A stretch of 64,000 nt of DNA from an uncultured euryarchaeote (GTDB taxonomy: Archaea; Thermoplasmatota; Poseidoniia; Poseidoniales; Poseidoniaceae), in the NCBI GenBank assembly GCA_937899865.1, contig CALBRH010000063.1:1957-65956 (forward strand). Reading direction: 5' to 3'. The translations under genes and the position numbers were made by a program. Below, in pieces: positions 152 to 10,987 of this stretch (positions are counted from its first letter, which is position 1; each line of letters starts with the position of its first letter). The notes under the pieces are model-generated. The model saw nothing but the letters and a program-made list of their open reading frames with translations. It was not told the DNA's origin and did not search any database.

Positions 152-1177
152 TCATTCCTCCTCCGTAGTCGACCTTAATGGCATCATATTTGATGCTTGA
201 ATTTCCATGCCGATATCTTCAATTTCTAATCCAGTAGCGTGACACAATAATTCGACAATATCAGGGGTCTTACGCTTCCATTCAGTAATCTTGTGACCAG
301 CATCAACAATTTTCTTTATGGCATCATCAGCTGGATTTTGAATAGTGCATAGCCAGGTATTTTCAGTTGAAACACAGTCAAGAATAGTACCGGAATTAAT
401 TAAATTTTCAAAATCAGGTATTTCTCCTTCACCATTTAATTCGATTCTATTATCTAAGCCAAGACTAGATTCAATATCTTCTATAGTACCATTTGCAACT
501 ACTTGTCCACGATGAATTAGCAATAACTTATCGATTAAACCAACCAATCCACTAACTTGATGTGATGAGATAATAATTGAAACACCTTTACTTGCTAATT
601 GTTTAATCATTTTCTCAACAGATTTGGCTGCTACTGGATCAAGTCCATTGAATGGTTCGTCAAGCAGCAATATTTTCGGTGAACCCATCAAAGCAATCGC
701 TAAACTCAATCTTTGACGCATTCCTTGACTTAATTCATCGAGTGATGAGTCTGATTTAGTAGTAAGCCCGACTAATTTTAGTAACTTTTCACATGAGATT
801 GATTCAGGTCTCATTTCTGCAAATTCGTTCATTGTTTGCATTACAGTAGTACTACCAGACCACCTTACCTGCTCTGGCATATGCCCAACATTAACTCTAA
901 GTTGATTATCTATGGACATGCCTGATTTTGTAAGATCTATGCCATTGAGTTTAATGGTTCCATTATCGATTGGTATAATTCCCGCTAAAACTCGTAGTAG
1001 AGTGGTTTTCCCAGCACCATTTGGCCCGACAAGTCCGAAAATTTGACCCTTCGTTAGTGAAAAATTCATTCCAAAAATACCAGGTCCCTTGCGTGTTTTC
1101 CAAGGATTAGTGAATTTTGGATTAGGGATTTTATGGCGAAATGTGATATCAATTAACTCGATAACCTTGTCTGCCAT
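152..1177 (-). CDS. ABC transporter ATP-binding protein (ABC-2/exporter type) with a C-terminal extension of about 100 aa
   Basis: Walker A GPNGAGKTT, ABC signature LSQGMRQRL, Walker B LLLDEP and H-loop SSHQ. Confidence 0.9.
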   Translation of the reverse strand: MADKVIELIDITFRHKIPNPKFTNPWKTRKGPGIFGMNFSLTKGQIFGLVGPNGAGKTTLLRVLAGIIPIDNGTIKLNGIDLTKSGMSIDNQLRVNVGHMPEQVRWSGSTTVMQTMNEFAEMRPESISCEKLLKLVGLTTKSDSSLDELSQGMRQRLSLAIALMGSPKILLLDEPFNGLDPVAAKSVEKMIKQLASKGVSIIISSHQVSGLVGLIDKLLLIHRGQVVANGTIEDIESSLGLDNRIELNGEGEIPDFENLINSGTILDCVSTENTWLCTIQNPADDAIKKIVDAGHKITEWKRKTPDIVELLCHATGLEIEDIGMEIQASNMMPLRSTTEEE

Positions 1178-1274
1178 GATGTGGCCTGTTGGTTCAACTA
1201 TGACAAATTAACTTGAAAATCAATATATTTGGCAAACATTATTGCTATGTTACTTAATCCTCAATCTGTTTAAG

Positions 1275-2159
1275 ATGCTTTTCTCGGTTATCATATCCTT
1301 TCTTATGGTAGCTGTTCTATTCTTGATAGTTTACATTTCAAAGCGAAATGAAACAGATGGCCAAATCGAATACAGACTTGCATATGGTGACAAAGGTTTG
1401 GAAATGCTAATTGCATGTGTGGCCCTTTTATGGTTAATTCCATGGGGCGTTTTGATAGTTTTACCACTGGCATTAATTCTCTCAATACTAAGTCCAGCGG
1501 GCAGGGAATCATGGCAAGAATTTGGTAAAATTCGAACATATGCGATTATTTCTATGATTATTGTATTATTAATCGGAGGCTTTGCTCCAACATCAATCCC
1601 TAAGTCTCCAGAAGAGTGGGGGGCGCCATTATTTGTTGAAAATCCAAACGCACCTTTGTACCCTGCCGGACAACAATACACATGGCTAATGCTGCCAACA
1701 GATGGAGGATTGAATGTTGAAATCGTACAATCACTCAGTCTTAGAACGCCTCATCAATTAGGTAAATTTGCATCAGCATCATCCACTCTAGCAATTGCAG
1801 ATATTTTCGATATGCAACAGTCTAGAATGGTACAAGCAATCCAGTTGCTAGATGAACAGATTGTCTTTGATATTGATGAAAATGAAATGCTATTATTACC
1901 GATCAAGGACAAGAAAACACATACTTACGAGGCAGGTGGAGAAAAACATGAATTGGATATAAGACTGTATGAATTAAGGAGTCTGACGTTGAGTTCTGAT
2001 CCTCAAGGAGTTAAAGTTGGTGAAGTGTTTTGTGCAGCAGAATCATCTTGGGGTGGTGAACTGGATATTCTTGTAGTGGTTAGGCCAATAGGACATACAG
2101 GCTTGTCGAGCGACAGGTATGCTGAAAGCCTCACAGTACAGTGGTTATCTGCAGAATAA
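1275..2159 (+). CDS. Hypothetical membrane protein with N-terminal TM helices and a soluble C-terminal half
   Basis: Long ORF (the track starts at a TTG at 1242; I prefer the ATG at 1275). It has several hydrophobic spans in the first 120 aa or so. No recognisable family motif. Confidence 0.45.
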   Translation: MLFSVIISFLMVAVLFLIVYISKRNETDGQIEYRLAYGDKGLEMLIACVALLWLIPWGVLIVLPLALILSILSPAGRESWQEFGKIRTYAIISMIIVLLIGGFAPTSIPKSPEEWGAPLFVENPNAPLYPAGQQYTWLMLPTDGGLNVEIVQSLSLRTPHQLGKFASASSTLAIADIFDMQQSRMVQAIQLLDEQIVFDIDENEMLLLPIKDKKTHTYEAGGEKHELDIRLYELRSLTLSSDPQGVKVGEVFCAAESSWGGELDILVVVRPIGHTGLSSDRYAESLTVQWLSAE

Positions 2160-2233
2160 GTGCGGAAATTGAAAATTTAGGTCAGCCTAAACAATATATA
2201 TGAGTCACTTTTCGGGCAACCTAAAGTGATATC

Positions 2234-4423
2234 ATGACTAAAGCAAAAATACCAGCAATAATGATACTGATAACCCTACTTTCTGCAAGTCTTGCAGGAT
2301 GTATAGGAAATGAAGAAGAATCCAACTCGTCAAACTGTAGTGGTGATGAGTTAAAGATCGCATTTGATCTTAAAGATGATTTGACTCCTGAATCTATTGA
2401 TAACCCAAGTAGAATAGCAGACTATCTTTGTGATGTCTTAGATATGGATGTCACTATCTATGATGTTGACAGTGCTGCCTTAGCAATGGAGGCATTGAGA
2501 TTCGGAAATGCTGACATAGCAATGAATATTGACGGAGGTCCTGCCTGGGTTGGATGGAATGCTTACAATTTAGAAGTTCTAGCAGCCGACACAAAAGATG
2601 ATGGAAGAGCCTTCTATAATGCCCATGCATGGGTACTCAAGGGTAGTGAAATGGAGTTGGCTTTGAATGACGATGATGAGAATACAGATCCATTCGCTCT
2701 ACTAGAAGGAAAAACCTCATGCCACACAGGATGGTTGAAATCTGCAGGCATGCTAATGCCAATGGGATATTTGATCGGGAATGGTTACGTTAATGTTGAA
2801 GGAGATTTATCTGATACTGAAACCCTAAGAACCACAATTAATGACTACTTTGACGGCTCAACTGGAAAAGGCAACCCTGCATCAATACCTGTTAGTGGCG
2901 GATTGTATTCTGGCTACGCAGGAGCATTGGAGTGCTTGAGTGATGGACATGGAGATGTAGCGTTTGCTAAGGATTCAACTGTTGGCAGTTATTGTGCAAA
3001 TGAGAATGCTACAGATAATGCTGAGTGGTGTTTAGACATTAGCCAATATGTGCCACTTCCAAAATTCGGCTCATCACCTTCTCACTCCGTAATGTATAAC
3101 GAAGATGTGTTGGCAGAAGACAAAGAACAGGCTATCAAGGATGCCTTGATTCAGATGAAGGATGATGAAGAGGGACTAGCAATTCTACAAGAGGTTCTTG
3201 GAACTGATGCAATGATTGCAACCAACTCTCAAGACCATCTTGGCACATATGGTGCTGCATTAGAAAATATACCTGGAATCTCCACAAAATATGGCAATGC
3301 ATTTGATGGTGGAACTGCTTTGTCTGATATCAAGTCAACAATAACCATAGCATATTATCTTGCAGAGGACTCATCCGCTAATGCCAACGCAATAGGAATG
3401 GCTGAAAGACTGGAGAATGACCTTGGAGTAAATGTTGAATTGTATGATGTATCTTCTGAAGGTATGATTATTCAGGCCCTAAGATTCGGTAATGCAGACA
3501 TTGGTTTCATGGAAGGCGGTCCAGCATGGATTGCTTGGAAAGAGTATAATCTACAAGTCTTAGCGGTTGAAACCACAACCGCTGAACGAGATACATATTA
3601 CAATGCAGCAGCATGGGTACTGGCAAACAGTACTATGGCTCAATATCACCTTGATGGAGATGATACAACTGATCCGTTTGCCGAATTGGCTGGAAAAACA
3701 TCATGCCACACTGGTTGGTTGAAATCTGCGGGAATGTTGATGCCAATGGGTTACATGATTGGTAATGGTTATGTAAATCCTGTAGGAGATACTGAAGATA
3801 TCAATTCTCTAAGGGATACCATAAATGGTCATTTTGATGGCTCAACCGGAGCAGGAAATCCAGCTTCCATACCAGAAAGTGGTGGACTGTATTCCGGATA
3901 TTCAGGCGCTCTCGAGTGTTTAAGCGAGGGTTATGGAGATGTCGCATTTGCTAAAGGTGATGAATTCAGTACTGTTCACAAATATTGTGATAATGAGGAT
4001 TCAAATGACAACTCTGATTGGTGTTTGCCTTTAGATCAATACGTCCAATTGCCTGCATGGGGTTCCTCTCCAAGCCATCCGATAATGTACAATCCGGAAA
4101 CACTTGATGTTAGGACTCGAAATGCAATATTGAATTCAATGTTAAGTTGGAATGATGAGATGTGGGTAGAAGATTATGAGATGAATGGAGAGACTTACAC
4201 AGGTTGCTACAATACTGTAACTCATTTCGTTGCTGACATACCTCAAGTTCAATGTGGTGGAGAGATTCTATCTAGCGTCACAAGCAAGGGCTACGGTTTA
4301 GCTGCAGGAAATAGTCAGAACCATTTGGGAAGTTATTCTGATCTGTTATCAGCAATACCTGGATTGTCAAAGTACTATCATGACGAAAAATATGGTATTA
4401 CTGAAGCACAAGACCAGTCCTAG
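2234..4423 (+). CDS. Bilobal transferrin-like substrate-binding lipoprotein of an ABC importer. It would probably be auto-annotated as PhnD-like.
   Basis: Signal peptide with lipobox LAGC (Cys23, nt 2300-2302). Two homologous halves each carry ADI..(D/E)GGPAW, (F/Y)YNA.AWVL, KTSCHTGWLKSAGMLMPMGY, GGLYSGY.GALECLS.G.GDVAFAK and SSPSH. These align by eye with the transferrin lobe ligand and anion-site motifs. The gene lies directly upstream of the ABC ATPase and permease. Confidence 0.8.
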   Translation: MTKAKIPAIMILITLLSASLAGCIGNEEESNSSNCSGDELKIAFDLKDDLTPESIDNPSRIADYLCDVLDMDVTIYDVDSAALAMEALRFGNADIAMNIDGGPAWVGWNAYNLEVLAADTKDDGRAFYNAHAWVLKGSEMELALNDDDENTDPFALLEGKTSCHTGWLKSAGMLMPMGYLIGNGYVNVEGDLSDTETLRTTINDYFDGSTGKGNPASIPVSGGLYSGYAGALECLSDGHGDVAFAKDSTVGSYCANENATDNAEWCLDISQYVPLPKFGSSPSHSVMYNEDVLAEDKEQAIKDALIQMKDDEEGLAILQEVLGTDAMIATNSQDHLGTYGAALENIPGISTKYGNAFDGGTALSDIKSTITIAYYLAEDSSANANAIGMAERLENDLGVNVELYDVSSEGMIIQALRFGNADIGFMEGGPAWIAWKEYNLQVLAVETTTAERDTYYNAAAWVLANSTMAQYHLDGDDTTDPFAELAGKTSCHTGWLKSAGMLMPMGYMIGNGYVNPVGDTEDINSLRDTINGHFDGSTGAGNPASIPESGGLYSGYSGALECLSEGYGDVAFAKGDEFSTVHKYCDNEDSNDNSDWCLPLDQYVQLPAWGSSPSHPIMYNPETLDVRTRNAILNSMLSWNDEMWVEDYEMNGETYTGCYNTVTHFVADIPQVQCGGEILSSVTSKGYGLAAGNSQNHLGSYSDLLSAIPGLSKYYHDEKYGITEAQDQS
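2348..3337 (+). repeat. Lobe 1 of the intragenic tandem duplication in the transferrin-like protein
   Basis: Roughly aa 39-368. It is collinear with lobe 2, and long motif blocks are identical (for example tcatgccacac.gg.tggttgaaatctgc at about 2717 and about 3700). Confidence 0.8.
3338..4423 (+). repeat. Lobe 2 of the intragenic tandem duplication in the transferrin-like protein
   Basis: Roughly aa 369-729, with the same motif order as lobe 1. It has an extra C-terminal segment of about 40 aa (WNDEMWVEDYEMNGETYTGCY...). Confidence 0.8.
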
Positions 4424-4458
4424 ATAGGGTAGTTCCTAAATACAATCTGCTTGCCGCA

Positions 4459-5193
4459 GTGGAATGGGGTGAATTTTTGGGGCGGCCTAAACCAGTGGAC
4501 GAAGTTACTGTTTGGGACGGTTTAACCGCTGGTTTAGAACCCATTATTCAACTACGTAGCCTAAATATTGGATATGGCAAATCTTTGGCAAAAGACATAA
4601 CTGCAGAAATTTACACTGGAGATAGAATTGCAATTATTGGTCCATCTGGTGTTGGTAAAACTACCTTACTTCGGACCATTGCCGGTCTAATAGCACCATT
4701 GTCAGGAGAAATCAATAACAATTGTTCTGGCAGAGGCGATATAGGTTACATTCCACAGAAACTAGGTTTAGTAAGGCATAGTAGCGCTAAGAGCAATGTT
4801 ATGCTTGGTGCAAGAACCAGAAAGTCTCGACTACACTTACCATTCTTTGGTATTGGTGAGGAGCTGAATAAAGAGGTCGATCAATTATTACAAAAATTAG
4901 GAATTAGCGAAATTTCTGATGAGCCAGTTAGGATTTTATCTGGTGGTCAACAAAGACGTGTAGCGATTGCAAGAGCCTTGATTCAGAAGCCGAAATTAAT
5001 TCTGGCAGATGAATTTCTTGGTGAACTTGATTCTGATAATATAGATTCAATCATAGATATTTTAGAGACTCAACTTAGTGAGATAAATGCCACTTTAGTG
5101 ATGGTTGAACATCAAGAAAATATTGCCCGAAGCATAGCGACAAGAATATGGCGCATTGTGGATAATCAAATCATTGAGGAGAGAGTTCAATGA
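4459..5193 (+). CDS. ABC importer ATP-binding protein (PhnC-like)
   Basis: Walker A GPSGVGKTT, signature LSGGQQRRV, Walker B LILADE and H-loop VEHQ. GTG start in the track. The stop overlaps the start of the next gene (ATGA). Confidence 0.85.
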   Translation: MEWGEFLGRPKPVDEVTVWDGLTAGLEPIIQLRSLNIGYGKSLAKDITAEIYTGDRIAIIGPSGVGKTTLLRTIAGLIAPLSGEINNNCSGRGDIGYIPQKLGLVRHSSAKSNVMLGARTRKSRLHLPFFGIGEELNKEVDQLLQKLGISEISDEPVRILSGGQQRRVAIARALIQKPKLILADEFLGELDSDNIDSIIDILETQLSEINATLVMVEHQENIARSIATRIWRIVDNQIIEERVQ

Positions 5194-6077
5194 ACAAAAA
5201 ACTCCTGCTATGGATTATTGCTACTGGGATTCTAACAATCCTAGCAATTGATGATATTGTAGAAGATTGGTCTACAATTGATGGTAGTTTTGAGAATATT
5301 TACATATTTTTTACCCAAGATTTGTTTCCTCCTGATTGGTCAATTTTATCATCAGAGCCTAACATAAAGTGTAACTCAGAGATTGGTTTTTTCTGTTCTC
5401 AAGCATGGAAAGGTATTTCGGAAACACTTCAAATGGCGTTTATTGCTACAGTTCTTGGATTTGTAATCTCATTGCCAATAGCATCTTTAGCAGCGAATAA
5501 CCTGTATCCTCTTCCAATCGCAATGGCAGCAAGAGTAGTATTAGCAGGCCTTCGAAGTTTGCCGAGTATTATTTGGGCACTAATTTTTACTATTGCGATT
5601 GGATTTGGCCCATTTTCAGGGGTTTTAGCAATGACACTGTACACTATTGGTTATTTGGGTAAACTTCAGTATGAAGCAATTGAGGGCATTGCTAACGAAC
5701 CTTTAGAAGCCTCGATGGCAATGGGGCTAACTAAATCTGAACGATTCTTATTCGTTGTAATTCCCGAGTCAAGTAATAATTTGATAAGTCAATTGCTGTT
5801 TATGTTTGAATACAATGTACGCCATGGAACAGTTCTAGGATTAGTTGGTGCTGGCGGTATAGGGCAATATATTGATACAAATCTAAAATTCTTCGTTTAT
5901 GACAAAGCTATGGCTTTCTTGATAGTGATATTTGTTGTGGTCGTGATTATCGATATATTGTCGATGGTTATCCGCTCCTATGTGACCGATGAAAGCGATT
6001 TCAAGCGACCAAAATGGTGGACGGTTTTACTACCTAGCGATGCCGCGATGAAAATTCACAGGCGAAATTTAGAGTAG
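5190..6077 (+). CDS. ABC importer permease (PhnE-like)
   Basis: Multi-TM protein with an EAA-type loop, EAIEGIANEPLEASMAMGLTKSERFLFVVIPE. It is translationally coupled to the ATPase. Confidence 0.8.
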   Translation: MNKKLLLWIIATGILTILAIDDIVEDWSTIDGSFENIYIFFTQDLFPPDWSILSSEPNIKCNSEIGFFCSQAWKGISETLQMAFIATVLGFVISLPIASLAANNLYPLPIAMAARVVLAGLRSLPSIIWALIFTIAIGFGPFSGVLAMTLYTIGYLGKLQYEAIEGIANEPLEASMAMGLTKSERFLFVVIPESSNNLISQLLFMFEYNVRHGTVLGLVGAGGIGQYIDTNLKFFVYDKAMAFLIVIFVVVVIIDILSMVIRSYVTDESDFKRPKWWTVLLPSDAAMKIHRRNLE

Positions 6078-7441: not shown

Positions 7442-8635
7442 TCAGAAAAGGTCTTCATCTTCTTCATCAAAGTCAAAGACATCAGTATCGTCTTTTTCTT
7501 CTTTCTTCTTTGCTTTAGTAGCCTTAGGCTTTGGTTTCGCTTTTTGCTTTGTTTCTTTAGCGGAATCATCTTTTTTGGCCTTTGCATCAGCCTCGGCCTT
7601 TTGCGCAGCAGCCTTCTTTTTCATCTCTTCAGTAGCAGCTTGAGTACGAGCATTAGCAATTTCAAGTTCTCTAGCTTTTATTTCTTCAGTAGACCTACCA
7701 GTTTGCGCTGCGAGACTTCTTCTTCTATCTTCTCTGGCTTTACGCTCGAGTTGCTTGTGTCTTGCCTTTTCGATATTTTGTAGCATGTACATAGCATCGT
7801 GCTCAAGCAATGGCGAATCTGAGATAAGTGTAATGTCTAACCATCCGCCCTCTTCTACAATAAATTCTGCTAGAGGTTCAAAGTTCAAGTCTGACTTCTT
7901 GATTTGAGTATAGTGCATTGCATTACCAGTTCTGTGTTCGACTCCAGAGAAATGGCAGTAGAATTCTTTGGTACCAATTGTTTCCCTCACTAAATCAAAC
8001 ATTTCTCCATAATCTTCAGAGGTCCTCATACTACCATGTCCTCTGGAATGTATGTGGGCAATGTTGAGTACCGGTACAGTTCCTTCAACATGGTTAACAA
8101 CTTCAAGAACTTCTTCAAGACTACCCCATAACTCTTGTCGACCTGAGGTTTCAATACCAATTTTTGATGGAGTTCCGTCCTTTAACCATGGGAATACAGG
8201 GTAAATATCTTCATCATCATGCCAAATTTCGTGGACTCTATCAACAATTCCGGCAAATACATTCGCTAATTGTTCGTTTGCTGCACGACCTCTGCCCATA
8301 TCGCCGTAATGTCCAGCATGGAGCGTTATGTGACGAGCATTGATTGTCTTAGCTGCTTGTAATGTAGATTCAATTTTGGTCAATGAACGTCCTCTTTCGA
8401 CTCTATCACCAAGTAATTCCGAATAATAAGGGCCGTGAATGTTCATTTCGAATTCAGTTTTATTAGCCAAAACTCCGGCTTGCCAGTATTGTTCAAAATG
8501 TTGTGGAGCAATCATTCTAACAGTCTGGACTTCCATGGTTTCCAAACCAAGAGAGATGATGTCGTCCATACCTTCTACGATAGTACGACCTTTGCATGAT
8601 AATGGAATACCTGCTGGACCCAATCTAATCGGCAA
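7442..8635 (-). CDS. Endonuclease IV family (AP endonuclease 2, TIM barrel) protein with a Lys/Glu/Ala-rich C-terminal tail of about 95 aa
   Basis: Blocks parallel E. coli Nfo metal-ligand regions: IHGPYYSEL, ITLHAGHYG, IGIETSGRQ, LNIAHIHSRGHG, YCHFSGVEH and LISDSP. The tail runs KKKAAAQKAEADAKAKKDDSAKETKQKAKPKPKATKAKKKEE...DEEDEDLF. Confidence 0.6.
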   Translation of the reverse strand: MPIRLGPAGIPLSCKGRTIVEGMDDIISLGLETMEVQTVRMIAPQHFEQYWQAGVLANKTEFEMNIHGPYYSELLGDRVERGRSLTKIESTLQAAKTINARHITLHAGHYGDMGRGRAANEQLANVFAGIVDRVHEIWHDDEDIYPVFPWLKDGTPSKIGIETSGRQELWGSLEEVLEVVNHVEGTVPVLNIAHIHSRGHGSMRTSEDYGEMFDLVRETIGTKEFYCHFSGVEHRTGNAMHYTQIKKSDLNFEPLAEFIVEEGGWLDITLISDSPLLEHDAMYMLQNIEKARHKQLERKAREDRRRSLAAQTGRSTEEIKARELEIANARTQAATEEMKKKAAAQKAEADAKAKKDDSAKETKQKAKPKPKATKAKKKEEKDDTDVFDFDEEDEDLF

Positions 8636-8778: not shown

Positions 8779-9492
8779 ATGAGCAATTCAATTAAAGAGG
8801 CTATTGATGCATTTTCCAATGGCTTGCCAGTTTGTCTTTTTGATTCTGAAAAAAGAGAGGGAGAGACTGACCTTCTATTCTCTGCTCAACACGTTACTCC
8901 GGCAAATATGAGGCAATTACGTCAAGATTGTGGAGGATTACTTTTCTTAGCGATCGGGCACGAAGTTGGCGAAAAGTTTGGTTTACCATTTTTGCAAGAC
9001 CTTCATACGCATGAAGTTTTAACAAGTCAATATGATGTATTGAAAGAATTAGTAACCAATGATTTACGCTATGATTCGCGTTCTGCATTTACCTTGTCTT
9101 TAAATCACAGAGGAACATATACAGGGATTACCGACAAAGACCGTTGCCTAACAACAAGGAGATTTGCAGAATTAACCAATGAGGTTTTTAGTAACAATAT
9201 AAGTCCTAAAGAGGCTAAAAGATTACTTGGACAAGAATTTAGAACACCCGGTCATATCCCAGTTTGCAGAGAAACCGAGGGTGGTTTGTCACGCCGGCAA
9301 GGGCATACTGAATTAGCAGTTGGCTTAGCAAGATTAGCTAATGTTTCACCAGTAGTAATTGGTGCAGAAATGCTTGAACCAGATGGCGATTTAGCACTCT
9401 CTGTTGATGAAGCTAAATTATGGGCGAAATCAAGAGATATTCCATTTCTTGAGGGTGCTGATATCATCGAAGCATTAAACATGAAAAACTAA
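8779..9492 (+). CDS. ribB: 3,4-dihydroxy-2-butanone-4-phosphate synthase
   Basis: REGETDL motif and the PGHIPV/RRQGHTELAV blocks, in a riboflavin operon context. Confidence 0.85.
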   Translation: MSNSIKEAIDAFSNGLPVCLFDSEKREGETDLLFSAQHVTPANMRQLRQDCGGLLFLAIGHEVGEKFGLPFLQDLHTHEVLTSQYDVLKELVTNDLRYDSRSAFTLSLNHRGTYTGITDKDRCLTTRRFAELTNEVFSNNISPKEAKRLLGQEFRTPGHIPVCRETEGGLSRRQGHTELAVGLARLANVSPVVIGAEMLEPDGDLALSVDEAKLWAKSRDIPFLEGADIIEALNMKN

Positions 9493-9542
9493 ACGATAGA
9501 ATCATCAATATCATTGAACAGCATTACTTTGGAGAGGATTTA

Positions 9543-9977
9543 ATGAGAGTTATGGCCGTTGGAGTTTTCGATTTACTTCATGCTGGTCATCTTCATTATC
9601 TTGAACAGGCTAAAGCACTTGGAAATCATCTTACTGTCGTTGTTGCACATGATGATACAGTTAGAATTAGAAAGCATGAGCCGGTAACTAATCATGACTT
9701 GAGAAGACGTATGGTAGAGGGATTAAAGCCTGTTGATGAAGCAATAGTTGGTAACTCACCAGATGTATCAATTTTTGAAATTTTACCAGTGGTTAATCCA
9801 GAGATTATCGCATTAGGTTATGACCAAGAGCATGCTGAAGATTCAATACGACAAAAGTTGAATGAATTAGGTTATGGGGCAATTAAAGTTACTAGGGTCG
9901 AGGGATTGAGTGATGATTTAGATGGCACTAGGAAAATAATTGCACGAATTCTTGATTTGTCAAGAAATAAAGACTGA
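9543..9977 (+). CDS. ribL: Archaeal FAD synthase (CTP-dependent nucleotidyltransferase)
   Basis: GVFDLLHAGHLHYL nucleotidyltransferase motif, 144 aa, with the VVVAHDDTV and LKPVDEAIVG blocks typical of RibL. Confidence 0.8.
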   Translation: MRVMAVGVFDLLHAGHLHYLEQAKALGNHLTVVVAHDDTVRIRKHEPVTNHDLRRRMVEGLKPVDEAIVGNSPDVSIFEILPVVNPEIIALGYDQEHAEDSIRQKLNELGYGAIKVTRVEGLSDDLDGTRKIIARILDLSRNKD

Positions 9978-9987
9978 GGGAAGTAAA

Positions 9988-10593
9988 ATGTTTACTGGAA
10001 TAGTCCAAGGTATTGGTGAGATAATTTCAGTATCTACGGAAAATACTGTAACTTCTTTCGAAATAAAATTACCAAATGTTGATGATTTAGCAATTGGCGC
10101 TAGTGTCTCGGTAAACGGCGTATGTCTTACAGTAGTAACAATAACTTCTGATATAATCAAATTTGATATTATCGATGAAACTATTCAAAGAACAAACTTA
10201 GGCGATTTATCTGTTGGCGATTATGTCAATATAGAGCGCTCACTAAAGTTCGGCGATGAAGTAGGGGGACATATCTTATCAGGGCATATTTTTGATACTG
10301 GAATAATCAAAAAGAAAACCACTTCAGGCGATCAAATGTCATTGAATATTTTAGCACCTCCTTCAATTCACAAATATCTTACTGAGAAGGGTTACATTGC
10401 TGTAGATGGTATTTCACTAACCGTTGGCAAGGTTGTTGATGGTTGCTTTGATTTGCATATTATTCCAGAAACTATGAGATTAACTATTCTCGATACGAAA
10501 GAAGTTGGTGATATTGTCAATATTGAAATTGATAGTAATACTCAATTGATAGTTGAAACCATAGAGCGTTTGTTAAAGGATAAGGTGGCATGA
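9988..10593 (+). CDS. ribE: Riboflavin synthase, eubacterial/eukaryotic-type alpha chain
   Basis: Canonical N-terminus MFTGIVQGIGEI and an internal pseudo-repeat (GASVSVNGVCLTV / IAVDGISLTV). The track ORF starts at 9940; I use the ATG at 9988. Confidence 0.85.
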   Translation: MFTGIVQGIGEIISVSTENTVTSFEIKLPNVDDLAIGASVSVNGVCLTVVTITSDIIKFDIIDETIQRTNLGDLSVGDYVNIERSLKFGDEVGGHILSGHIFDTGIIKKKTTSGDQMSLNILAPPSIHKYLTEKGYIAVDGISLTVGKVVDGCFDLHIIPETMRLTILDTKEVGDIVNIEIDSNTQLIVETIERLLKDKVA

Positions 10594-10594
10594 A

Positions 10595-10987
10595 ATGAAA
10601 ATAGTAGCAGTTTGTGGTTCATTTCACAAAAAAGAAATTGAATTGATGCTTAAATTCGCTAAAGAAGAAGCAATGGCTCATTCTATAGAAATTGCAGAAG
10701 TGATTTGGGTGCCGGGTTCAATGGAAGTTCCACTTGCTTTAAATCGTGCAATAGGAGATTTTGATGGAGCAATTTGCTTGGGAATTATCGAAAAGGGTGA
10801 AACCTTACATGGAGCATCAATGGGTAATGCGGTTTTGAAATCAATTGTAGATCTACAACTTTCACATAACAAACCAATAGGTTTGGGAATTATCGGCCCT
10901 GGTGCAGAGCCACAACATATCGAGCCTCGTTTAGAGCCCCATGCCAGAGCCGCAGTCAATGCAGTTGTGGTCATGAATAATCAGTAG
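10595..10987 (+). CDS. ribH: 6,7-dimethyl-8-ribityllumazine synthase
   Basis: VPGSMEVPLA and DGAICLGIIEKGETLHG blocks, 130 aa, in an operon with ribE. Confidence 0.8.
   Translation: MKIVAVCGSFHKKEIELMLKFAKEEAMAHSIEIAEVIWVPGSMEVPLALNRAIGDFDGAICLGIIEKGETLHGASMGNAVLKSIVDLQLSHNKPIGLGIIGPGAEPQHIEPRLEPHARAAVNAVVVMNNQ

Follow-up and report, generated by a model that had tools for sequence, protein, structure and literature searches.

A 64-kb stretch of DNA from an uncultured archaeon of the Poseidoniaceae (positions 1,957 to 65,956 of contig CALBRH010000063.1; hereafter, the window) carries three consecutive genes on one strand, encoding a 729-residue lipoprotein, an ATP-binding subunit of an ATP-binding cassette (ABC) transporter that resembles PhnC, and a permease of the PhnE type (Table 1). 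Source annotations name the first product 'ABC-type phosphate/phosphonate transport system substrate-binding protein' 'PhnD/SsuA/transferrin family substrate-binding protein' or, in occasional cases, 'melanoma-associated antigen p97'. A preliminary description of this DNA had read the lipoprotein as a bilobal transferrin serving an ABC importer in a marine archaeon, and had predicted that annotation pipelines would label it a phosphonate-binding protein, as the sources indeed do. The open reading frames (ORFs) and the lipobox are where it had placed them, and the host it proposed agrees with the 98% identity of the window to a metagenome-assembled genome (MAG) of the Poseidoniaceae (Marine Group IIa, MGIIa). 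Marine Group II (MGII) archaea are the most abundant planktonic archaea of the ocean and dominant heterotrophs. The analysis presented here supports, from sequence, the view that an ABC importer of the PhnCE type, subject to DtxR-type control, has a transferrin-family protein as its binding protein.

Table 1. The transferrin-like operon, its control region and its surroundings (window coordinates unless a locus is named)
Feature	Position	Strand	Remarks
Transferrin-like binding protein gene	2234-4423	+	729 aa, two lobes
Signal peptide and lipobox (residues 1-23, ...LSASLAG-C23)	2234-2302	+	predicted export and lipid anchoring
Lobe 1 (residues about 36-365)	2339-3328	+	candidate Fe ligands D100, Y128, Y228, H284; T165/K169 anion site
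Lobe 2 (residues 366-729) and stop codon	3329-4423	+	E427, Y456, T493, K497, Y556, H615; Cys-rich insert
Cys-rich insert (about residues 652-676)	4187-4261		lobe 2 only
ABC ATP-binding subunit, PhnC-like	4459-5193	+	PF00005 E=2.9e-31; 32% identity to E. coli PhnC
ABC permease, PhnE-type	5190-6077	+	PF00528; 31% identity to E. coli PhnE
Operator 1, perfect 16-nt palindrome TTTAGGTCAGCCTAAA	2176-2191	.	directly upstream of TATA-like box; putative DtxR-family site
TATA-like box TATATAT	2195-2201	+	between operators, 33-39 nt before ATG
Operator 2 TTTCGGGCAACCTAAA	2210-2225	.	between TATA-like box and start codon, where transcription would be expected to begin
Third operator-like site TTTGGGGCGGCCTAAA, 1 mismatch	4476-4491	.	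between binding-protein stop codon and probable ATPase start
FEA1/ISIP2a-family lipoprotein genes	L066:2080-3567, L073:3434-4894, L074:2163-3818		PF07692 family
Second two-lobed paralogue	L026:8441-10537	+	own lipobox; between canonical binding-protein gene and ATPase gene
Divergent ABC ATPase	152-1177	-	PF00005 and AAA_21; upstream of operon
Multi-pass membrane protein	1242-2159	+	305 aa, without Pfam family; upstream of operon
397-aa protein	7442-8635	-	82-98% identity, beside operon in many loci
Riboflavin/FAD cluster-like genes (by eye)	8779-10987	+	presumed assignment

The lipobox of the binding protein reads LAGC, and its Gly22 and Cys23 are invariant across 25 relatives. Conservation was assessed on 121 sequences, namely the window protein plus the 120 database sequences most closely related to it (46-98% identical), whose named members all come from Marine Group II or Marine Group III (MGIII) archaea; a lipobox was found in 118 of them. 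Aligned with one another, the lobes show 50% identity (E=2e-109), and the main gap between them corresponds to the Cys-rich insert (...TYTGCYNTVTH...C). This module is present as a single copy in 110 of the 121 sequences and in 3-4 copies in the relatives P0015 and P0028. It is also found at the C-terminus of 90 of 120 lipoproteins related to FEA1 (see below). It may be a docking or metal-handling element common to the transferrin-like and FEA1-related proteins.

A Pfam search of the binding protein returned two families and nothing beyond them. The Transferrin model (PF00405) matches the whole protein with E=8.6e-36 (124 bits, for a cut-off of 20.3), its N-terminal half with 4.3e-20 (72.6 bits) and its C-terminal half with 5.6e-16 (59.1 bits). 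The corresponding values for Phosphonate-bd (PF12974) are 6.6e-27 (94.9 bits, cut-off 27), 1.1e-15 (59 bits) and 1.2e-10 (42 bits). PF00405 outscores PF12974 for the full-length protein and for either half. This comparison of the two models had been proposed in the preliminary description, the outcome that would tell against its reading being a firm placement of both lobes in PhnD with no transferrin match; instead, each lobe has a significant transferrin match, and it is the higher of the two.

The residues that bind iron in transferrins were located by aligning all lobes to a hidden Markov model (HMM) built from 50 archaeal lobes; the numbering of the N-lobe sequence of human serotransferrin (hTf) used in this alignment is self-consistent and reproduces all known ligand positions. 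Residues D100, Y128, T165, K169, Y228 and H284 of lobe 1 share columns with hTf residues 63, 95, 120, 124, 188 and 249, respectively, and the corresponding signature of lobe 2 is E-Y-T-K-Y-H. A phmmer alignment likewise pairs D100, Y128, T165/K169 and Y228 with Asp60, Tyr92, Thr117/Arg121 and Tyr191 of ovotransferrin. Thus, the five motifs that had been aligned to hTf by eye (around Asp63, Tyr95, Thr120 with Lys replacing Arg124, Tyr188 and His249) all hold up. Lobe 1 reads D-Y-T-K-Y-H in 119 of the 121 sequences and lobe 2 reads D/E-Y-T-K-Y-H in 120, which argues that the signature is not a chance occurrence; the ligand set is also kept in single-lobed archaeal forms that are just 37-45% identical. 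In addition, Cys163 and Cys234 of lobe 1, invariant in the relatives, align with the Cys118-Cys194 pair of hTf. The column of hTf Thr120 is Thr in both lobes, while that of Arg124 is Lys in both (K169 and K497), and Lys is the state of every ichthyosporean transferrin lobe that contains the anion site.

In divergent paralogues (clades P0122, P0123, P0127, P0129/P0307 and P0131), the ligand positions decay together. In locus L026 there is a further two-lobed paralogue that has a lipobox of its own; its lobe 1 has His in place of the anion-site Lys, Phe at the Tyr188-equivalent position and Asp in place of His, and lobe 2 has lost nearly all its ligands. These degenerate paralogues resemble the members of the vertebrate transferrin family that do not bind iron.

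Sequence searches lead to the same family. Among the matches to solved structures listed, the best are all transferrins, ovotransferrin being found at 1.8e-25 with the single sequence; when the family profile was used against the PDB, lactoferrin was found at 3e-37 and the best matches listed were again transferrins exclusively. A phmmer search with lobe 1 against 1.84 billion cluster representatives recovered only 301 clusters at E <= 1e-3, where thousands would be expected if ordinary PhnD proteins were within reach. The archaeal relatives come first, followed by ichthyosporean and holozoan transferrins with E-values of 1e-114 to 1e-30. The top non-archaeal match is a multi-lobed transferrin of Chromosphaera (1e-114, 36% identity); further multi-lobed transferrins were matched in Corallochytrium, Creolimax, Amoebidium, Ichthyophonus and Abeoforma, and after these holozoans come the green alga Bryopsis (13 matched stretches) and then amphioxus. 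The nearest non-archaeal relatives are hence ichthyosporean, algal and amphioxus transferrins, at 31-39% identity. A distant relative that lacks the ligands, P0199, was tried as a route to PhnD-like sequences and failed, melanotransferrin and saxiphilin being its first matches.

E. coli PhnD, as annotated in the K-12 genome, can be aligned to the lobe HMM over 79 residues and reaches 11.5 bits, compared with 60 bits for the hTf N-lobe, and in a BLASTP comparison it aligns with the window protein at E >= 0.001. It has Gly in the Asp column and no alignable CHTG..K, GY.G..C or PSH motif; at the column equivalent to Tyr95 it carries Tyr93 (mature numbering). Conversely, the window protein fails both the NCBIfam equivalog model for PhnD (TIGR03431, 36 bits for a cut-off of 261) and the phosphate/phosphite/phosphonate subfamily model (TIGR01098, 67.5 bits for a cut-off of 112). 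Families of the FbpA/FutA type gave no Pfam or NCBIfam match to the binding protein at E <= 1, and FbpA is not among the PDB or Foldseek matches listed (the best 50-60 per search).

The fold was considered as a discriminator and dropped. The AF2 model of lobe 1 has a pLDDT (predicted local distance difference test) of 92.1, and Foldseek places transferrin lobes among its top matches, with template modelling (TM) scores of 0.5-0.62 and 20-25% identity; the phosphite-binding protein PtxB scores alike. Because PtxB ranks as high as the transferrin lobes, it is the sequence, the residues and the context that carry the argument, and the fold does not. The full-length model has a pLDDT of 69.7, and its bilobal superposition on transferrins gives a TM score of only about 0.3, because the orientation of the lobes differs. 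Judged in this way, the family is a true intermediate between transferrin and PhnD: it is a transferrin by its sequence, residues and cysteines, and PhnD-like by its partners and general fold.

The partners are conserved together with the binding protein. The ATPase gene lies downstream of it in 73 of 79 fetched loci and the permease gene in 64, the remainder being mostly truncated contigs, and the order binding protein-ATPase-permease is found at essentially every locus on a long enough contig. For the ATPase, the best NCBIfam model is PhnC (133 bits, under the cut-off of 266). NCBI gives the name 'metal ABC transporter ATP-binding protein' to P0276, a homologue with 40% identity. As there is only one permease gene, the permease presumably acts as a homodimer. 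The first residue of P0276 corresponds to residue 26 of the window ATPase, which indicates that the ORF with the GTG at 4459 as its start probably extends too far upstream and that the true start lies downstream, for instance at the in-frame GTG at 4495. The loci examined showed neither phn catabolic genes nor Pho-type elements, and the approximately 10 kb inspected around the operon likewise revealed no phn catabolic gene.

The region upstream of the binding-protein gene contains two copies of a palindrome of the form TTTAGG-N4-CCTAAA. Nowhere else in the window is TTTMGG-N4-CCKAAA matched exactly. When one mismatch is allowed, three matches are found, compared with 0.56 expected, a number reached in 1 of 100 shuffled sequences. 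Of the 89 fetched loci, 76 contain exact copies, and in 43 of the 84 loci with enough upstream sequence they are paired directly before the binding-protein gene, mostly with 33-35 nt from start to start and sometimes with 43-44 nt; these include single-lobed lineages with an adjacent repressor gene. In most related loci, the paired motif is found no more than about 100 nt ahead of this gene. AT-rich boxes lie between the paired palindromes at other loci too, and we take the TATATAT of the window as a candidate archaeal promoter element. Given its distance from the ATG, the 5' leader would be very short or absent. A scan for sigma-70 promoters and terminators gave background levels, the sigma-70 model being not applicable to archaea. 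Exact copies of the third operator-like site are found just upstream of the ATPase gene in loci L026 and L035; this site, together with the position at which P0276 begins, suggests that the ATPase gene may have its own regulated start.

Further regulatory evidence comes from the neighbours of the operon in related genomes. A gene for a DtxR-family repressor of about 140 residues (PF01325 and PF02742) lies directly upstream, on the same strand, in L080, L087 and L088, where the binding proteins are single-lobed homologues about 45-50% identical to the query P0145, on contigs of Thermoplasmatota type. In L089 such a gene immediately follows the operon, and in the MGIII and MGII loci L033, L034, L040, L046, L079 and L085 one precedes the two-lobed gene in divergent orientation. 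L066 and L074 have the operator pair ahead of a gene for a lipoprotein of the FEA1 family (PF07692, E about 1e-24), which precedes the transferrin-like gene, and homologous genes occupy the equivalent place in L067, L073 and L075; in L066, L067 and L073 no ATPase or permease gene follows immediately. PF07692 is described as Fea1, 'Low iron-inducible periplasmic protein', and this annotation covers the diatom phytotransferrin ISIP2A. No FEA1-family gene was found in the window itself. This family is abundant in MGII, with 862 matches, and in the Thalassarchaeaceae its members are named 'FEA1-related lipoprotein' by NCBI.

Taken together, these data make it reasonably probable that the operon encodes a metal-regulated ABC importer for ferric iron, with a binding protein that truly belongs to the transferrins by sequence. 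The iron part of this reading is supported by three independent lines, the operator pair, the linkage to DtxR-family genes and the FEA1/ISIP2a-family neighbour in relatives, as well as by the joint loss of the ligands in paralogues, and the gene set that has so far been read as serving phosphonate uptake would most likely serve iron uptake. The following mechanism can be proposed. When iron is sufficient, a DtxR-family repressor, encoded outside the window (its gene adjoins the operon in several related lineages), would bind the two palindromes and block the initiation of transcription; low iron would lift the repression. The 729-residue product would then be exported and, as its lipobox predicts, anchored outside the membrane by a lipid on Cys23. 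Each lobe would enclose a single Fe(III) ion and, with it, a synergistic anion that is probably carbonate, as the homology of the residues suggests: in lobe 1, Asp100, Tyr128, Tyr228 and His284 would hold the iron, and Thr165, Lys169 and the N-terminus of the following helix the anion; in lobe 2, Glu427, Tyr456, Tyr556 and His615 would hold the iron, and Thr493 and Lys497 the anion. A loaded lobe would dock on the dimer of the PhnE-type permease, and the PhnC-type ATPase would drive release and import. Having two lobes on one anchor would double the capture capacity at the transporter.

Several observations weigh against this interpretation. PF12974 also matches the window protein significantly, and for the single-lobed relatives, all 44 of which match both families, the best E-value is that of PF12974 (1.4e-40, against 1.2e-30 for PF00405). 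Foldseek ranks PtxB on a par with the transferrin lobes (TM scores of 0.60 and 0.74, 16-17% identity), the permease exceeds the equivalog cut-off for PhnE (TIGR01097, 237.5 bits for a cut-off of 216.7), and the anion site has Lys where hTf has Arg124. As to regulation, no DtxR gene was found in the 64 kb of the window. The core TTAGG-N4-CCTAA resembles the classical DtxR/IdeR iron box, a likeness that we treat as a lead only. DtxR-family repressors may sense manganese as well, and the linked repressor, when compared by eye with DtxR and MntR, has Glu at the Met10 position and Cys at the Cys102 position, which leaves its selectivity ambiguous.

The distribution of the family bears on where it came from. 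A pattern scan of GTDB species-representative genomes found relatives in 287 stretches, and all 79 loci fetched belong to the Poseidoniales or MGIII, except two contigs binned as bacteria. The latter, L011 and L070, are labelled as Pseudobdellovibrionaceae and Rhodobiaceae MAGs yet carry the archaeal operon, and L070 has archaeal neighbours too (GpsA at 83% and the 397-residue protein at 85%); both are probably mis-binned contigs of Poseidoniales. A scan of metagenomes with one single-lobed protein yielded a single locus, the patterns being too specific. Single-lobed lipoproteins with the full signature are found in the Poseidoniaceae (P0125, 55% identity) and elsewhere in the Thermoplasmatota, and there is a single-lobed relative in the Halobacteriales. 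Four more, P0217 (Nitrosopumilus), P0252 (a Heimdallarchaeota MAG), P0198 and P0225, read D-Y-T-G-Y-H, with Gly for the anion-site Lys; they have no cysteine and no lipobox, carrying a signal peptide or an N-terminal anchor instead. The presence of the family in an Asgard archaeon is worth noting with regard to the origin of transferrin, its basis being the annotation of one MAG.

In L083 and L084, a single-lobed gene occupies a locus that is syntenic with the window, with an ABC-2 transporter and a membrane protein upstream, GpsA and an AP-endonuclease-fold gene downstream, and a rhodopsin nearby. At the other extreme, P0015 (1156 residues) has three lobes, each reading D-Y-T-K-Y-H; since its lobes 1 and 2 are mutually closest, the third lobe reflects a further recent duplication. 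In a crude, unrooted neighbour-joining tree of 59 lobes, the holozoan lobes form one clade (91% bootstrap), the eukaryotic lobes cluster by species, and the lobe-1 and lobe-2 sequences of MGII stand together, apart from the eukaryotes. E. coli PhnD was tried as an outgroup and rejected, since only about 79 of its residues could be aligned and it attached to varying long branches across bootstraps. Thus, of the phylogeny called for at the outset, the separation of the archaeal lobes from the holozoan clade was obtained and the rooting on PhnD was not. The evidence favours an independent multiplication of lobes in archaea, within the Poseidoniales, and repeatedly in eukaryotes: single-lobed forms exist in archaea, including the one at a syntenic locus in Poseidoniales, the two lobes of the window protein, at 50% identity, resemble one another far more than either resembles a eukaryotic lobe, and the lobe tree puts archaeal lobes nearer to other archaeal lobes than to any eukaryotic one. 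Of the two evolutionary routes envisaged in the preliminary description, inter-domain transfer and independent duplication of a lobe, it is the latter that comes out ahead.

Transferrins are treated as a eukaryotic invention, and, as far as we could find, no living intermediate between phosphonate-binding proteins and transferrins has been described. The literature derives both the phytotransferrin ISIP2a and transferrin from periplasmic proteins that bind phosphonate. Transferrin is not mentioned in the MGII genomics literature that was searched, which does not address iron acquisition in MGII, and the search found no link of transferrin with MGII, Poseidoniales, Thermoplasmatota or archaeal binding proteins, although the phylogeny of McQuaid et al. 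(2018) may include such sequences. Tully (2019) lists 'the transport of phosphonates' among the core traits of MGII, a trait that presumably rests on the transferrin-like operon. Tentatively, and with somewhat less than even confidence, we propose that the prokaryotic stem of the transferrin family survives in these archaeal lipoproteins, that eukaryotes obtained their transferrins by transfer from archaea, and that the core 'phosphonate transporter' is a carbonate-dependent iron importer. The stem would be an importer derived from PhnCDE, with the Asp/Tyr/Tyr/His set and the anion site, spanning Thermoplasmatota, Halobacteria, Nitrososphaeria and Heimdallarchaeia. From the retention of PhnC/PhnE-type partners and of similarity to PF12974, we infer that the archaeal state is ancestral and not the product of a back-transfer.

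The opposite course, in which marine archaea acquired a eukaryotic transferrin secondarily and later recruited it to an ABC transporter, appears unlikely. It would account for the eukaryotic affiliation of the nearest non-archaeal relatives (31-39% identity), which have the Lys variant of the anion site in common with the archaeal proteins, and for the marine habitat shared by MGII and these eukaryotes, and the unrooted lobe tree leaves room for it. Against it stand the single-lobed forms of Thermoplasmatota, Halobacteriales, Nitrosopumilus and Heimdallarchaeota, whose operons have the same partner genes; the PF12974 match and the PhnC/PhnE-type partners, which fit co-descent from a PhnCDE-like system; the separation of the holozoan clade from all archaeal lobes; and the number of cysteines, 5-7 per archaeal single-lobed protein versus 20-37 per multi-lobed eukaryotic protein. 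A recent transfer from eukaryotes to archaea is the less likely direction.

We consider it likewise improbable that the operon imports another hard metal, such as Mn(II/III) or a tri- or tetravalent cation, under the control of an MntR-like member of the DtxR family. The linked repressors, with about 140 residues and two domains, do look like MntR, and they have Glu instead of Met at the Met10 position. Structures of transferrin loaded with Al, Ti, Cr, Bi, Ru and Yb are also among the matches, showing that such sites accept many hard cations. Nevertheless, a site made of two tyrosinates, a histidine and a carboxylate next to an anion pocket is the archetypal site for Fe(III), the repressor retains the residues equivalent to Cys102, Glu105 and His106, and in some lineages the co-regulated neighbour belongs to the low-iron-inducible FEA1/ISIP2a family; moreover, Mn(II) is soluble in seawater, and its capture would need no such site.

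Least probable of all is a PhnD-type binder of phosphonate, phosphite or phosphate that feeds PhnCE and uses its transferrin-like residues for oxyanion binding or has inherited them without any function in metal binding, for, even if PF12974 is significant for both lobes and for all the single-lobed relatives (with the better best E-value in the latter), the permease passes the PhnE equivalog cut-off, PhnC is the best model for the ATPase, the fold is equally near PtxB and transferrin, E. coli PhnD has a Tyr of its own at the Tyr95 column and phosphonate transport is counted as a core trait of MGII (Tully 2019), the protein fails the PhnD equivalog and subfamily models, E. coli PhnD reaches 11.5 bits on the lobe HMM and lacks the Asp and the three other motifs, the neighbours and regulators are of iron type (DtxR and FEA1 families) with no phn catabolic gene or Pho-type element in the loci examined, and the Asp/Tyr/Tyr/His set is invariant where it is kept and lost as a set in the paralogues.

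Other genes surround the operon. The multi-pass membrane protein encoded upstream is syntenic in 34 of the 79 loci, and the divergent ATPase was found in 59, a count inflated by weak cross-matches to the ATPase of the operon itself; in L083 and L084, an ABC-2 permease accompanies this pair. The 397-residue protein on the other side has a long, highly charged C-terminal tail rich in Lys, Glu and Ala, and its homologue in L084 has a weak match to AP_endonuc_2. Further downstream lie genes that we take, by eye, to form a riboflavin/FAD cluster (DHBP-synthase-, nucleotidyltransferase-, riboflavin-synthase- and lumazine-synthase-like), followed presumably by thioredoxin-reductase-like and ThiF/MoeB-rhodanese-like genes.

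If the operon is an iron importer, it suggests a route of iron acquisition for MGII and moves a 'core' phosphonate-transport trait to iron. Uptake would be predicted to depend on carbonate, and iron uptake by these archaea would then have the sensitivity to carbonate, and hence to acidification, that has been shown for diatoms, some lineages pairing the importer with a lipoprotein of the phytotransferrin family. The combination of a transferrin iron site, its cysteines and a multi-lobe layout inside an operon of PhnC/PhnE type makes the question of the origin of transferrin directly testable, and the pair formed by the operator and the repressor offers a handle on archaeal iron stress in metatranscriptomes.

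The system can be compared with several known ones. It has the operon layout of PhnCDE and PtxABC, its ATPase and permease are 32% and 31% identical to E. coli PhnC and PhnE, and its binding protein has a PF12974 match and can be superposed on PtxB. Unlike these systems, it has the metal-ligand set, the disulfide cysteines, duplicated lobes and a genetic context of iron type in place of a Pho or carbon-phosphorus lyase context. With the FbpABC, FutABC and AfuABC importers it would share a principle, a binding protein that captures Fe(III) by tyrosinates and an anion and delivers it to an iron-repressed ABC importer, but it differs from them by its PhnC/PhnE-type partners, its two lobes and its archaeal lipoprotein instead of a periplasmic protein. 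GlnPQ of Lactococcus also has tandem binding domains that serve one translocator; there, however, the domains bind amino acids and are fused to the permease, whereas the lobes described here form a separate lipoprotein of the transferrin family. ISIP2a and FEA1 (PF07692) are membrane-anchored, induced by low iron and capture Fe(III) in a carbonate-dependent manner on the surface of marine plankton; in contrast to ISIP2a, the window protein is of the PF00405 type, and delivery is proposed to proceed through an ABC transporter instead of endocytosis. Finally, eukaryotic transferrins (serotransferrin, lactoferrin, ovotransferrin and melanotransferrin, and those of Ichthyosporea and green algae), about 20-39% identical per lobe, have in common with the window protein the Asp/Tyr/Tyr/His positions, the Thr and basic residue of the anion site, the Cys118-Cys194 pair and tandem lobes. 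Unlike them, the window protein is a lipid-anchored ABC binding protein with few cysteines and no receptor-mediated endocytosis, with its own lobe duplication, a Cys-rich insert in lobe 2 and Pfam similarity to PhnD. It is thus a member of the transferrin sequence family and not a functional equivalent of the secreted or glycosylphosphatidylinositol-anchored serum carrier.

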